31,154 nucleotides of DNA from Actinomycetota bacterium. GTDB lineage: Bacteria > Actinomycetota > Acidimicrobiia > Acidimicrobiales > Ilumatobacteraceae. The translations under genes were made by a program, and so were the position numbers. The notes under the pieces were generated by a model. It was not told where the DNA came from. It saw only the letters and a list, made by a program, of their open reading frames with translations, and searched no databases. This document shows, piece after piece, positions 3,025 through 8,393 of this stretch. The stretch's first letter is position 1. Each line of letters opens with the position of its first letter. The DNA lies in NCBI GenBank assembly GCA_005801025.1, contig SYDZ01000040.1, positions 1 through 31,154 of the forward strand, read 5' to 3'.

Positions 3025-4236
3025 ATGACGCGCGTAGCCATGCTCTCTTTGCACACCTCGCCTTTGGCTCAGCCAGGGGTTGGGGATTCGGGCGGGATGA
3101 ATGTGTACGTCCGCGAACTCGTTGCGGGTCTGGCCCACGCCGGCGTTGAAGTCACCACGTATACCCGTGAGTGGCGCGTTGGTTTGCCCCGAGAAATCTT
3201 GGTTGAGCCTAATCATCGAGTGATTCATATTCCTGCTGGTCAATTCGCTTTACCCAAAGAAGAACTTGAGTCTCTTGTTCCGACGTTCACCGATTTGGTA
3301 CTCGACGACATTCGCAGAAATCACCCAGTTGATGTTGTGCATGCAAATTATTGGTTATCAGGCTTATCTGGGCACGCGCTCAAACACGAATTAGATGTCC
3401 CACTGGTGACGACTTTTCATACCTTGGCTCGAGTCAAAGCCGAAGGTGGTGATCCCGAAACTGAACGTCGTGAAAGAGCCGAAGCCCAAATCATTGGTTG
3501 TGCTGATGCGATTTGTGTGAGTTGCGATGAAGAAGAAGATCAGTTTCGTCGTCTGTATGGCAACCCGCCAGGTGTTTTAGAAATCGTTGCGCCAGGTGTT
3601 GAACATGCCTTCTTCACACCTGGCGATAAGCGCGGTGCTCGTGCGGCACTCGCAATGGGTGACGGACCAGTGTTGTTATTCGTCGGACGTATTCAGCCCC
3701 TCAAGGGAGTTGATGTCGCCGTTCGCGCTTTAGCTGCTCTTGGTCGTCGCGATGCGCAGTTATACGTCGTTGGTGGAGCGAGTGGTTCGCACGGCGACAC
3801 AGAAGTGCTTCGCGTCCAAGCACTGATCGCTGAATTAGGTTTGACTCGCCAGGTGCACTTCATTGAAGCGCAAGCGCACCACATGTTGTCAACGTATTAC
3901 CGCGCCGCCGACGCTGTTTGGGTCCCGAGTCGTTCAGAAAGTTTTGGGCTTGTGGCCCTTGAAGCCGCTGCATGTGGCACTCCTGTCATTGCCAACGCTG
4001 TCGGTGGTTTGTTATCGCTTGTTGATCACGGCCGCACTGGCTATCTCGTTGCTGATCGTGATCCTGAAGTTTTCGCTAAATACACTGCAGAAATCCTTGA
4101 TCATCCTGCTCTCGCCACCGCGATGGGCATTGCGGCGGCTGACCGCGGTCGCCGTTATACATGGAGTTTTGCCGCAGCACGTTTACGTCGGGTGTACACA
4201 GATATCACCTCTCGCTCACTCGTGAACTGCTCGTGA
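3025..4236 (+). CDS. mshA: D-inositol-3-phosphate glycosyltransferase (mycothiol synthesis), GT4
   Basis: HTSPLAQPGVGDSGGMNVYV, VHANYWLSG, GRIQPLKG, SESFGLVALEA; followed by a YbjN gene as in other actinobacteria; alternative TTG start at 3022. Confidence 0.85.
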   Translation: MTRVAMLSLHTSPLAQPGVGDSGGMNVYVRELVAGLAHAGVEVTTYTREWRVGLPREILVEPNHRVIHIPAGQFALPKEELESLVPTFTDLVLDDIRRNHPVDVVHANYWLSGLSGHALKHELDVPLVTTFHTLARVKAEGGDPETERRERAEAQIIGCADAICVSCDEEEDQFRRLYGNPPGVLEIVAPGVEHAFFTPGDKRGARAALAMGDGPVLLFVGRIQPLKGVDVAVRALAALGRRDAQLYVVGGASGSHGDTEVLRVQALIAELGLTRQVHFIEAQAHHMLSTYYRAADAVWVPSRSESFGLVALEAAACGTPVIANAVGGLLSLVDHGRTGYLVADRDPEVFAKYTAEILDHPALATAMGIAAADRGRRYTWSFAAARLRRVYTDITSRSLVNCS

Positions 4237-4703
4237 GTGATCTCTTTGATGACGGTTCTTTGGCGATCTTTGAACGCCAAATTGATGAATGGTTAGCGAA
4301 ACTAAAATCTGTCAATGAAACAATCTTGGCCATTGATCATGGAGATCCTGATCCTGTATATCGCTCCCGTTGGTATGTACGCATGAAGGGTGAGACCAAG
4401 GACTACATCACCGTGTGGCTGACTCTCGGGCAGCGTACATTGCGTTATGAAACGTATGTTCTTCCCGCTCCCGAAGAGAACATCGCTGAATTCAATGAGA
4501 ACTTATTACGTCGCAATGACAAATTGATCGGAGCCCATTTTTCAGTGGGACTTGAAGACGCTGTGTACCTCCGTGGCGAGTTGCCAGTGATTGGATTGGT
4601 GGAGTCCGAAGTGGACCGTGTTGTTGGTTCGCTATATGCCTATGTTGAGCAGTGTTTTCGACCACTGCTGGCTATCGGCTTTGCCTCACGCTTTGCGAAC
4701 TAG
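4233..4703 (+). CDS. YbjN-domain protein (T3SS chaperone-like fold)
   Basis: GTG start overlapping the mshA stop (GTGA); RWYVRMKGE.K..ITVWLTLGQRTL; position after mshA. Confidence 0.7.
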   Translation: MSDLFDDGSLAIFERQIDEWLAKLKSVNETILAIDHGDPDPVYRSRWYVRMKGETKDYITVWLTLGQRTLRYETYVLPAPEENIAEFNENLLRRNDKLIGAHFSVGLEDAVYLRGELPVIGLVESEVDRVVGSLYAYVEQCFRPLLAIGFASRFAN

Positions 4704-4811: not shown

Positions 4812-5615
4812 ATGGGTACTTCTGATTCGGCAATTTTGGCCATCGTCGGTGGCGGAAATATGGGAGCGGCACTGGCTGGCGGTTTGTTGTCATCAGGCTT
4901 CATCACCACTAACGATCTGATCATCGTTGAGGTCCTTGAGGCTCGTCGCCAACATTTGGCGCATCTTTTCCCAGGTGTCACAATTTCGGCCACGATCGGA
5001 CCATGTGGTTCAGCCGTCATCGCCGTGAAACCCCCAGATGTGCCAGCCGCCGCTCAGGCGTGCGTTGGGGCTGGAGCAATAAGGGTTTTGTCGATTGCTG
5101 CTGGAGTCACATTGAAAACCCTTGAGTCGGCGTGTGGTGCTGGAGTGGCAGTTGTCCGAGCGATGCCCAACACGCCTGCCCTTGTGGGACAGGGGGCTTC
5201 AGGAATTGCCGGCGGCACACATACCACCCAGGCCGATTTGGAGTGGGCACGAGCAGTTTTAGGGTCGGTGGGCATCGTCGTCACTGTGCCTGAGGCGCAA
5301 TTAGATGCTGTGACCGGACTCGTCGGCAGTGGTCCCGCATATCTCTTCTTGGTGGCTGAGGCTTTGATGGATGCTGGGGTCGCTGAAGGTTTGCCGCGTG
5401 ACACCGTTGATGTATTGATTCGTCAATTGTTCGTCGGATCTGCGGCTTTGCTGGCTCAGGGGCAGGATCCCAAGGATTTACGTGCCAGTGTGACGTCACC
5501 TGGGGGTACAACCGCGGCGGGGATTGCACTCCTTGAGGCACAAGCCATTCGGACTGCTTTTGCTGAGGCTGTTCGCGCCGCCACAGAGCGAAGTCGCCAA
5601 CTCGGTGGTCAGTAA
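4812..5615 (+). CDS. proC: Pyrroline-5-carboxylate reductase
   Basis: GGGNMG, SIAAGV, RAMPNTP, GSGPAY, VTSPGGTT. Confidence 0.96.
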   Translation: MGTSDSAILAIVGGGNMGAALAGGLLSSGFITTNDLIIVEVLEARRQHLAHLFPGVTISATIGPCGSAVIAVKPPDVPAAAQACVGAGAIRVLSIAAGVTLKTLESACGAGVAVVRAMPNTPALVGQGASGIAGGTHTTQADLEWARAVLGSVGIVVTVPEAQLDAVTGLVGSGPAYLFLVAEALMDAGVAEGLPRDTVDVLIRQLFVGSAALLAQGQDPKDLRASVTSPGGTTAAGIALLEAQAIRTAFAEAVRAATERSRQLGGQ

Positions 5616-5674
5616 CGCACTTTTAGTGTGTTTTACCCCGTTTTCGGGCAGATAATAAATTTCACTTTTTCACT

Positions 5675-5703
5675 TTCAAAGTTGGTGCGCCTGTGCCTAG
5701 GGT
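5675..5703 (+). promoter_or_regulatory. Housekeeping-sigma promoter (TTCAAA-N17-TAGGGT) upstream of the candidate RNA
   Basis: -35-like hexamer 5675-5680, 17-bp spacer, TANNNT 5698-5703, AT-rich tract upstream. Confidence 0.5.
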
Positions 5704-5708
5704 ATGTC

Positions 5709-5810
5709 ACAGGTCACATGACCGCTAGCTGAAGGTTGGCTAGGGACGCGCCCGCAAGGGCAGCGCCGATAGGGCTGGTGCCAGCGGGGGGTTGGTACCA
5801 GCCCCGTCGC
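5709..5810 (+). ncRNA. Candidate structured RNA with four consecutive hairpins, family not recognised
   Basis: Hairpins 5712-5723, 5725-5743, 5744-5767 (GCAA GNRA tetraloop) and 5772-5804 (12-bp stem, G-rich loop); G-U pairs and the GNRA loop favour the plus strand. Confidence 0.55.
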
Positions 5811-5857
5811 ATTTCTCGGGTCTGTTGTTGTTTGGTGACTTGAGTCAATTTCACTGC

Positions 5858-5863
5858 CACACT
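5858..5863 (+). promoter_or_regulatory. Possible -10 element CACACT, leaderless-type, for the SAM hydrolase gene
   Basis: CANNNT variant 7 nt before GTG 5871; no SD. Confidence 0.35.
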
Positions 5864-5870
5864 GTGAAGC

Positions 5871-6734
5871 GTGAGTCGTACCTATGAGACCGTGTCATTC
5901 ATTTCTGACTTTGGTTATGAGTCAGAACATGTGGGCGTCGTCAAAGCAGTACTCCGTGAGTCGGCTCCGCAAGTCGTTGTGATTGATCTCACGCATGGCA
6001 TTTCTCCGTTTGATGTTCGCAGCGCTTCGTTGTCGCTAGCGCGCGCTGTTCCGTATCTGACGCAAGGCATTGTGATTGCTGCGGTAGATCCAGGCGCGGG
6101 AACACGACGTCGTTTAGTGGCTGTCGAGGTTGCCGGTGGTGCTGGAATTTTTCTCGGTCCTGATAACGGTTTATTAGCACCTGGGGTGGCTTTAGTTGGT
6201 GGTGCTGAGCGCGCTGTCATTCTTGACAAAGAAGAACATCATCTTGTTGCTCCCGGATCAACGTTCGCAGCGCGTGATGTTTTTGCGCCGATCGCCGCCA
6301 TGTTGTGCAACGGTATTGATTTATACGAGGTTGGAACGCAAGTTGACCCCGCTGCATTGTTGCCAGGTATCGTGCCGATTCCACGTGATGAGAATGGCAC
6401 ACTTGAGTGTGAAGTTATTTGGGTTGACCGTTTCGGCAATTGTCAGTTAAATGTCAGCCTTGATGATTTAGAAACAGCGTGGAATACCAAAGTTGATCGT
6501 GTCCGCGTGGGCTTCGGTGAGAATATTCGCAATTTCGCAATTTCAACATCCTTTGCTGATCTCGGCCAAGGTGCAACTGGATTGGTGATTGATTCGTCAG
6601 GTCTGTTGTGTCTCGCCATTGATCGTTCATCAGCAGCGAAAGAGTTATCTTTGGGCGAAGGTGAGCAGGTTTCATTGCAGCCTGGTGCAACGGAGCCAGG
6701 GGCATCAACCCCGATTTCGTTGAGGAATAAGTAG
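5871..6734 (+). CDS. SAM-dependent chlorinase/fluorinase family (DUF62, SAM hydroxide adenosyltransferase-like)
   Basis: FISDFG, IDLTHGI.PFDV, AAVDPGAGT.RR, GPDNGLL, TFAARDVFAP, VDRFGN. Confidence 0.9.
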   Translation: MSRTYETVSFISDFGYESEHVGVVKAVLRESAPQVVVIDLTHGISPFDVRSASLSLARAVPYLTQGIVIAAVDPGAGTRRRLVAVEVAGGAGIFLGPDNGLLAPGVALVGGAERAVILDKEEHHLVAPGSTFAARDVFAPIAAMLCNGIDLYEVGTQVDPAALLPGIVPIPRDENGTLECEVIWVDRFGNCQLNVSLDDLETAWNTKVDRVRVGFGENIRNFAISTSFADLGQGATGLVIDSSGLLCLAIDRSSAAKELSLGEGEQVSLQPGATEPGASTPISLRNK

Positions 6735-7709: not shown

Positions 7710-8393
7710 ATGGCAAATCGCTCCCGTCGTAAAATCGCAGAAGCCACGATTTCTCGGCTTCCGATGTATCTGCGGATTCTGCTGGAGTTAACAGAATCTG
7801 GGGTGGCTGGAGTGTCTTCGGAAAAAATCGCCGAAATGGGTGGGATTAACGCTGCCAAGGTCCGTAAAGATCTCAGTTACCTCGGCAGTTATGGGACTCG
7901 TGGGGTTGGGTACGAAGTTTCCTTCTTGATTTTTCAGATTCAACGAGAACTTGGGATTGACCATGAATGGCCAGTTGTCATCGTCGGCGCTGGCAATTTG
8001 GGTCAGGCCCTCATTGGCTCTGGCGGGTTTGGCCGACGGAGTTACCCAATCGTCGGGCTCGTGGACATCGACGAAGCCAAAGTTGGTTCGCTGATTGGCA
8101 GTCTGCGGGTGGGCCATATTGATGAGTTGCCTGCTCTCATTGCCTCACGGAAGGTGGCGATCGGCGTGGTGGCAGTTCCGGGCGAGGCCGCTCAGATGGT
8201 TGCCGATCGACTGATCTCTGCGGGGGTGACCAGTATTTTGAACTTCGCCCCGATTCCTGTGAGCGTTCCAGCGGGAATTACCGTTCGCCAAGTTGATTTG
8301 GCGTGTGAACTGCAGATCCTGAGTTTTCATGAGCAACACAAGAAAAAAGTTGTTCCATGGCCACAAGTTTTACCGAAGAGTGTCAGTGCATAG
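7710..8393 (+). CDS. rex: Redox-sensing transcriptional repressor Rex
   Basis: TISRLPMYLR, VRKDLSYLGSYGTRGVGY, VIVGAGNLG, ILNFAP; upstream of hemA as in actinobacteria. Confidence 0.96.
   Translation: MANRSRRKIAEATISRLPMYLRILLELTESGVAGVSSEKIAEMGGINAAKVRKDLSYLGSYGTRGVGYEVSFLIFQIQRELGIDHEWPVVIVGAGNLGQALIGSGGFGRRSYPIVGLVDIDEAKVGSLIGSLRVGHIDELPALIASRKVAIGVVAVPGEAAQMVADRLISAGVTSILNFAPIPVSVPAGITVRQVDLACELQILSFHEQHKKKVVPWPQVLPKSVSA

Follow-up and report, generated by a model that had tools for sequence, protein, structure and literature searches.

A new structured small RNA family of the Ilumatobacteraceae, probably transcribed from its own gene upstream of the SAM hydrolase gene

In the window analysed here, the whole stretch of 31,154 nucleotides (nt) of the Ilumatobacteraceae contig SYDZ01000040.1, to which all coordinates refer, the stop codon of proC at 5615 and the start codon of a DUF62 gene, encoding a predicted S-adenosylmethionine (SAM) hydrolase, at 5871 are separated by an intergenic gap of 255 nt, which raises the question of whether this gap encodes an RNA and, if so, whether that RNA acts on its own or as a leader of the downstream gene. 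A first-pass annotation, made from the sequence alone, had described in this 255-nt gap a promoter-like TTCAAA-N17-TAGGGT followed by four hairpins, one of which carries a run of six G residues, and had proposed either a new trans-acting small RNA or a cis element sensing SAM; the sequence features that it listed are all present where it had placed them. Our analysis indicates that the element belongs to a new RNA family that is specific to the Ilumatobacteraceae and of a known kind, the stand-alone bacterial small RNA, with a well-supported structure, and the data support the RNA gene itself as well as its strand, structure, and autonomy. On comparative sequence grounds, we consider it reasonably probable that the locus encodes, as a gene in its own right, a structured small RNA of ~105 nt that is restricted to this family and acts in trans without Hfq. 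The promoter and the parts of the predicted RNA are as follows, with A3 denoting an alignment of 40 diverse members and A4 an alignment of 78 distinct members obtained by scanning for the P4-loop pattern.

5650 to 5669, plus strand: A/T-rich block, possibly UP-element-like in function, read from the sequence; similar GAAAAATTTCC-like blocks occur at the corresponding position in most family members
5675 to 5680, plus strand: -35-like hexamer TTCAAA, read from the sequence, with a 17-nt spacer to the -10 hexamer
5698 to 5703, plus strand: -10 hexamer TAGGGT, of the TANNNT type, recognized from the sequence and by family comparison
5710 to 5816, plus strand: predicted small RNA of ~105 nt, both ends estimated; covariance models R1 and R2 match 5704-5819
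5712 to 5723, plus strand: hairpin P1, GGUC-ACAU-GACC, with compensatory changes in 2/4 pairs (A3) and 4/4 pairs (A4)
5725 to 5743, plus strand: hairpin P2, CTAGCTGA/TTGGCTAG, with compensatory changes in 6/7 pairs (A3) and 7/7 pairs (A4)
5747 to 5765, plus strand: hairpin P3, with a CGC base, a small internal loop or bulged A, a CCC/GGG top, and a GCAA loop; 100% of cells paired
5767 to 5809, plus strand: hairpin P4, a long stem of roughly 20 base pairs (bp) with the G6 run at 5786-5791, from sequence and covariance
5783 to 5793, plus strand: apical loop of P4, AGCGGGGGGUU here and (A/G)UCGGGGGGUU in nearly all relatives, from the alignment

Within the genus, 32 of 36 genomes matched the element by blastn at 76-93% identity, and the matches were confined to window positions ~5693-5820; the flanking intergenic DNA has diverged and is unalignable among these genomes. 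The element is also better kept than the genes around it, since identity of the neighbouring proteins is no higher than 59-76% in most same-genus genomes. Blastn against 24 genomes of other families returned zero matches. Two covariance models were used, the first built from 30 genus sequences and the second from 40 diverse members. The first recovered a single full-length copy in 148 of the 151 Ilumatobacteraceae genomes (147 of 150 without the unpublished genome G272) and in 61/61 genera, and 101 of the 103 high-quality genomes of the family have a full-length match. Where a genome gave a second model match, this was the palindromic P4 read from the opposite strand, and all of the loci fetched after the scan for the P4-loop pattern were full-length members (80/80). 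Outside the family, the second model gave one match among 147 other genomes of the order (E 0.046) and one among 133 genomes of the class (E 0.009); these matches are at chance level, and under the strict filters of the order and class searches, the RNA was not found among the genomes searched. Two weak model matches outside the family were rejected as members: one (L035) consists of a tRNA followed by a terminator hairpin, and the other (L037), its frame unchecked, looks like coding sequence.

The Ilumatobacteraceae are actinobacteria that abound in lakes, seas, and soils and most of which are uncultured. They include the acIV lineage, a label that also appears in the title of one matching record, and at least one cultured strain, that of the Desertimonas flava record (L118), carries the RNA. 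Full-length copies are also found in public records of metagenome-assembled genomes titled Bifidobacterium or Ferrithrix (L088, L105, L115-L117, L124, L151, and L086), titles that are probably mislabels.

The consensus structure consists of four serial hairpins, with neither a closing helix nor a conserved multi-helix core. In alignments fitted to the model, compensatory changes were found in 20 (A3) and 23 (A4) of the 34 pairs, and 97.2% (A3) and 94.0% (A4) of cells were paired, compared with 29-47% (A3) and 34-45% (A4) when the pairing partners were slid; 0/500 shuffles attained the observed pairing and covariation values on A3 and 0/500 on A4. The four hairpins proposed in the first-pass annotation are thus borne out by covariation among homologous regions, and this support is sufficient to enter the RNA as a new family, providing a family marker for annotators and a defined object for experimenters.

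The hairpins vary to different degrees. P1 is paired in 95% of cells on A3 and 88% on A4 and has been lost or altered in several genera. P2 is free in both sequence and length, and the length differences in its loop and stem are not multiples of three, which argues against coding. In P3, the three upper pairs covary, for example from CG to UA in 28 of 78 sequences, and the loop among 80 members is GCAA in 19, GAAA in 8, and another sequence or a longer insert in 53. The conserved core is GCGCCGA followed by P4, in which every cell of the upper 13 pairs is paired, both in 40 and in 78 sequences (100%). The loop sequence CGGGGGGUUG is invariant among the 40 members recovered by model search alone, without a loop pattern, while its invariance in A4 is a consequence of the search pattern. 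Variation is seen in the bases flanking the loop, with AUC in 53, GUC in 25, and AGC, the type of the window, in 2 of the 80 pattern-found members, the first base of each variant pairing with a U across the loop. In the L034 genus, P1 and P3 are missing and the RNA seemingly comprises one hairpin and P4.

Folding energy alone cannot identify the transcribed strand, because the minus strand folds well too. The plus strand folds at -74.4 kcal/mol, compared with -61.5 +/- 3.9 kcal/mol for dinucleotide shuffles (z -3.3, with 1/200 shuffles as good), and the minus strand is likewise more stable than its own shuffles (z -3.0). The pairs are more informative. G-U cells exceed A-C cells by about 5 to 1 (45:9 on A3 and 149:33 on A4), and it follows that the plus strand is the RNA, the strand on which the first-pass annotation had drawn it.

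Transcription would start ~7 nt past the conserved TANNNT -10, where we have placed the 5' end of the RNA; its 3' end was placed after P4 and the T-run behind it. In 36 of 40 diverse members, the end of a TANNNT hexamer is no more than about 6 nt from the model start, and 2 of the other 4 have the hexamer slightly shifted. Most other genera have at the -35 position a conserved 15-mer, GTGACNCTTTTCTCA, that lies ~25 nt 5' of the -10. When searched with at most one mismatch in five genomes, this 15-mer occurred once per genome, at the RNA promoter, in four and was not found in the fifth. An upstream GTGAC block with the potential to pair with P1 (GUCAC) was rejected as a part of the fold; it is constant where P1 changes, which marks it as promoter DNA. 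The transcript would fold into the four tandem hairpins, the last of which probably doubles as an intrinsic terminator, because about half of the members have a T-run behind P4 (at least three T residues in 21/40 and 45/80 members). In GC-rich genera, GUCGCGUCCGG follows P4 in place of the T-run.

Whether this transcript is separate from the mRNA of the gene behind it depends on the flanking genes and on the promoter of the latter, which are as follows.

4812 to 5615, plus strand: proC (pyrroline-5-carboxylate reductase), an open reading frame (ORF) with a match to Pfam P5CR_dimer (E 2.5e-36)
5858 to 5863, plus strand: -10-like hexamer CACACT of the DUF62 gene, 7 nt 5' of its GTG start codon, suggestive of a leaderless type
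5871 to 6734, plus strand: DUF62 / SAM hydroxide adenosyltransferase (SAM hydrolase), with matches to Pfam SAM_HAT_N (8.4e-38) and SAM_HAT_C (5.1e-16)

Of 32 family loci, 31 have a [T/C]ANNNT hexamer 5-9 nt 5' of the start codon of DUF62, with CACACT in the genus of the window and a TAGCGT-like form in most other genera. TAGCGT-like hexamers occupy the same place in several DUF62 loci of sister families, and from its sequence the DUF62 gene looks leaderless across the order Acidimicrobiales. Leaderless mRNAs are common in Actinobacteria. A -10 at this distance from the start codon implies a leaderless mRNA that would begin behind the RNA element, and because DUF62 has this promoter of its own just behind the RNA, the RNA is most likely not part of the DUF62 mRNA.

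The first-pass annotation had also raised the question of whether the element travels with proC or with DUF62. For the most part it does, with proC 5' of the RNA in 30/30 genus loci and 31/33 family loci and DUF62 3' of it on the same strand in 30/30 and 29/33, often 15-60 nt past the model end, but the linkage is broken in two genera. In the 4/33 family loci with a different downstream gene, this is a coenzyme A (CoA)-transferase or an acyl-CoA dehydrogenase gene: the former, a CoA-transferase III gene, follows the RNA in genus g174, one genome of which has a VWA-domain gene replacing proC, and the latter follows it in genus g161. One locus is without proC, and proC is absent upstream in 2/33 family loci in all. 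In 5/5 genomes of g174 and g161, DUF62 is on a different contig from the RNA, and a filter-free model search of these five genomes found no RNA 5' of the relocated DUF62. The relocated gene lies behind what looks, from a sequence motif, like the end of a dUTPase gene in 4/5 of these genomes, and in three of those four, the downstream ORF of the window and Rex still lie 3' of DUF62. The conserved -10 of the RNA, the separate -10 of DUF62, and the retention of the RNA where DUF62 or proC has moved away all agree with the separate small RNA with its own promoter that had been suggested from the sequence.

Some further features of the locus can be noted here. The proC stop codon is followed at 5619-5660 by two small hairpins with T-runs (CGCAC-UUUUA-GUGUG UUUU and CCCG-UUUU-CGGG), which are likely the terminators of proC itself and would divide proC from the RNA promoter. 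A YbjN-like gene (4161-4703) lies 5' of proC across the whole family, and the gene for the redox repressor Rex (7710-8393) is two genes 3' of DUF62 and remains with DUF62 when the RNA is unlinked. The DUF62 product also matches the NCBIfam (R)-SAM hydrolase models, under their cut-offs.

The other proposal of the first-pass annotation, a cis leader of the SAM hydrolase gene, would make the element a riboswitch or attenuator in which SAM or a related metabolite is sensed and P4 serves as the regulated terminator. The succession of promoter, structured RNA, terminator-like hairpin, and gene is the classical layout for such a leader, DUF62 follows on the same strand in most loci, and one metatranscriptome contig bridges the whole stretch. 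We nevertheless regard this reading as unlikely and favour a stand-alone RNA gene, because DUF62 has its own -10, from which its mRNA should begin behind the element, and because the two are unlinked in two genera. No Rfam riboswitch, including the SAM and S-adenosylhomocysteine (SAH) classes, matched at E<=10, and what is best conserved is a terminator-like hairpin and its loop rather than a ligand-binding junction, with no junction, closing helix, or multi-helix core. Hairpins 1 and 3 are gone in the genus of L034. The RNA is kept before CoA-transferase or acyl-CoA dehydrogenase genes, and DUF62 is kept without the RNA; in the rest of the order, 128 of 147 genomes have DUF62 but no RNA.

A more radical alternative is that there is no RNA gene at all and that the hairpins are a passive terminator or insulator of proC or a DNA inverted-repeat operator of the DUF62 promoter. 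P4 is a perfect inverted repeat ~25-60 bp 5' of the DUF62 -10, a usual place for an operator, and the minus strand, as noted, also folds better than shuffles. However, the one-sided changes in upper P4 are all plus-strand G-U (23 cells on A3 and 67 cells on A4, with zero A-C), for which a DNA palindrome would not select, and P4 is thus not explained as such a palindrome. Three further hairpins covary and have a conserved promoter in front of them, proC has small hairpins with T-runs of its own right after its stop codon, and the element persists where proC or DUF62 is no longer next to it. We consider this alternative very improbable.

Several observations weigh against a stand-alone, trans-acting RNA. 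The tight linkage to DUF62, at 29/33 loci, would be consistent with a cis role too, and the alignments from which pairs were counted were fitted to the model, which favours structure. A simple consensus scan listed neither the plus-strand RNA promoter nor the P4 terminator; TAGGGT agrees with TATAAT at 3/6 positions, and the P4 loop and T-run lie outside the rules of the scan. A T-run of at least three is absent after P4 in 19/40 and 35/80 members, so that termination is uncertain in about half of them. No conserved target emerged from limited complement searches, which covered the source genome, 30 FmdB loci, and 41 genomes. Lastly, in a library recorded as RNA (run X1), a 2142-nt contig of a relative, with 57 differences, bridges proC, the RNA, and DUF62.

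The library data of which this contig is part are assembled contigs, which may hold DNA and cannot give ends, strand, or level. Small parts of the stretch are represented in eight runs recorded as RNA, of which four were aligned to the window. X1 also has a 262-nt contig with the element of another relative. In run X2, one contig spans 5553-5813 and another 5871-6071, leaving 5814-5870 uncovered; the stop at 5813 coincides with the end of P4 and the next start at 5871 with the DUF62 start codon, which fits the RNA-gene model, and contigs of X3 and X5 start at 5880 and 5888. As these are contigs only and come from one study, we have not counted the contig ends of X2, X3, and X5 as evidence.

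If the RNA is indeed a stand-alone product, its working part would be the last hairpin, P4, because its apical loop, (A/G)UCGGGGGGUU, is constant, whereas variation and loss are seen in the other hairpins. Our best guess is that it acts in trans, free of Hfq, by presenting the exposed G-rich loop to a C/U-rich partner, which might be a stretch of an mRNA or a different RNA, for example the anti-Shine-Dalgarno (anti-SD) end of 16S rRNA. Neither Hfq nor CsrA was found in 5 family genomes, implying that any pairing would be chaperone-independent or assisted by an unknown protein, and a CsrB-like sponge was rejected because no CsrA was found. A single-copy RNA with an invariant loop in 61/61 sampled genera likely has a central role in these cells.

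It is also conceivable, if doubtful, that P4 is recognized by a protein or by the 30S subunit, in which case the RNA would serve as a decoy, scaffold, or cofactor and would not pair with mRNA. P4 is almost invariant across the family in both arms as well as in its loop, a degree of conservation beyond what a short pairing seed requires, and the absence of a conserved complementary target from our searches would fit such a role. For the ribosome, a 17-nt oligonucleotide of the loop and adjoining stem bases is predicted to pair at -10.7 to -12.3 kcal/mol with a canonical anti-SD tail, as opposed to one read from these genomes, compared with -6.1 kcal/mol for a G-rich control and -20.7 kcal/mol for an ideal SD, but these energies apply to the free oligonucleotide and disregard that part of it is normally held in the stem. 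For a protein, there is no candidate, as CsrA and Hfq were not among the products found in the five genomes, and binders of RNA polymerase of the 6S or Ms1 type are far longer rods with a central bubble.

Pairing of the loop with an mRNA was approached through complements of the loop. The source genome has 159 C6 runs, and the only good loop complement close to a start codon was CAACCCCCC, before the ATG of a gene for an FmdB-like zinc-ribbon protein (contig C78, 4637-4984, minus strand). This candidate was rejected as a chance match; among 30 family loci with this gene, the C-run is present only in the source genome and in one genome of the same genus (GAACCCCC). Across 41 genomes, a perfect 10-nt complement of the loop had more matches than its reversed control, which has a different codon make-up; in 30 loci inspected from this search, the matches apart from the element itself were mostly within long open frames. 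A duplex scan of the window with the loop oligonucleotide gave nothing outstanding except the element's own antisense. Independently of the RNA, an inverted repeat resembling CIRCE (controlling inverted repeat of chaperone expression), of the type TTAGCACTC-N9-GAGTGCTAA and presumably an HrcA operator, was seen by eye 15-45 nt 5' of the FmdB-like gene in about half of the 30 family loci (L226-L255); it is absent before the FmdB-like gene of the source genome.

In comparison with known RNA families, the first-pass annotation could not match the element to any of several riboswitch and RNA classes, and its novelty held up against Rfam 15 (4227 models): the whole window gave zero matches at gathering scores, and positions 5560-5930 gave zero on both strands at E<=10 with permissive filters. 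The riboswitches of the SAM and SAH classes (SAM-I/IV, SAM-II, SAM-VI, SAM/SAH, and SAH), whose models are included in that blank result for 5560-5930, resemble the element in having a SAM-metabolism gene downstream of a promoter, a structure, and a terminator-like hairpin. They differ from it in their conserved junction or pseudoknot, which is absent here, and in this locus, the downstream gene is of the leaderless type and the linkage is broken in two genera. The full-text literature searched, with subscription journals and supplements outside its scope, held no report of a riboswitch before DUF62 and none on small or structured RNAs of Ilumatobacter, Acidimicrobiia, or Acidimicrobiales.

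The nearest model for a loop that acts as a pairing seed is 6C RNA (RF01066), in which two hairpins of the transcribed strand have C-rich loops. Both are small multi-hairpin actinobacterial RNAs with a homopolymer run in the loop and come from hosts lacking Hfq, but 6C RNA has C-runs in two loops, whereas this RNA has a single G-run and would have a C-run only on its minus strand, which the G-U counts disfavour. The 6C model had no match in the window or in 5 family genomes. This blank, like that of the 6S model (RF00013), which matched in 0/5 family genomes, is weak evidence, as the controls for both models respond in few reference genomes only, among them Corynebacterium for the weak 6C control. 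With 6S undetected in these five genomes, the niche of an RNA-polymerase-binding RNA could be open in the family, and 6S RNA and Ms1 share with the element the character of single-copy, widely conserved, stand-alone RNAs. The likeness does not extend to the fold: 6S RNA (187 model positions) and Ms1 (~300 nt) are long rods with a central bubble, whereas this RNA is a ~105-nt series of hairpins. Its locus also differs from that of Ms1, whose neighbours are given as a HAD hydrolase and an oxidoreductase in a study that does not mention Acidimicrobiia (PMC9130861).

Bacterial signal recognition particle (SRP) RNA (RF00169) is similar to the element in size, in being single copy and near-universal in the family, and in having a GNRA-capped hairpin. 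Its model misses the element, however, and matches another locus in 4/4 near-complete relatives at 68-73 bits; SRP RNA was not found in the source genome (G000), which is 69% complete. Another taxon-restricted, multi-hairpin RNA is scr5239 of Streptomyces, reportedly a conserved, group-restricted small RNA with several stem-loops, its own terminator, and known targets; it belongs to a different taxon and has no sequence or model relation to the RNA described here.

A different perspective on the locus comes from the sister families, in which the place before DUF62 is often taken by a protein gene, as in the following example.

L198, 2374 to 2565, minus strand: 64-amino-acid (64-aa) excisionase-family helix-turn-helix (HTH) gene, one example, with 17 others among L198-L225

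DUF62 was found in 131 of the 151 genomes searched for the order, a count that includes the unpublished G078 and G179. In 18 of the 27 loci from Acidimicrobiales of other families (17 of 26 without L205, from the unpublished G078), a 64-aa ORF lies directly 5' of DUF62; its product matches HTH_17 (E 2.1e-16) and an excisionase-family domain (2.8e-19) and falls under the BldC subfamily cut-off. In most of the remaining sister loci, proC and DUF62 abut, 15-47 nt apart. The HTH ORF was found in 0/34 family loci and 0/30 genus loci, and a search of five family genomes for the gene gave only weak matches to other HTH proteins. Its promoter has a CTTTYC motif ~24 nt 5' of the -10, and the RNA promoter has CTTTTC at ~25 nt, a similarity that is suggestive, though no proof, of a shared promoter. 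Descent of the RNA from the HTH gene itself was examined with nhmmer at maximum sensitivity and rejected; the RNA profile showed no similarity to the sister-family loci.

These observations could mean that a small DNA-binding HTH regulator gave up its slot to the RNA, which may also have inherited its promoter and its role, an idea that we regard as a long shot. Under such a replacement, the anti-SD of 30S subunits or C-rich leaders might be targets of the SD-like G-loop, and if true, this would be a rare documented exchange of a protein regulator for an RNA regulator. Regardless of that history, the comparison documents that the SAM hydrolase gene is of a seemingly leaderless type throughout the order and that an RNA gene occupies the slot of a protein gene present in sister families. 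The HTH gene lies 5' of DUF62 even where proC is not adjacent, indicating that the two form a conserved gene pair, and a G-rich SD sequence, GGAGRAGGGGUG, is present in the HTH leader.

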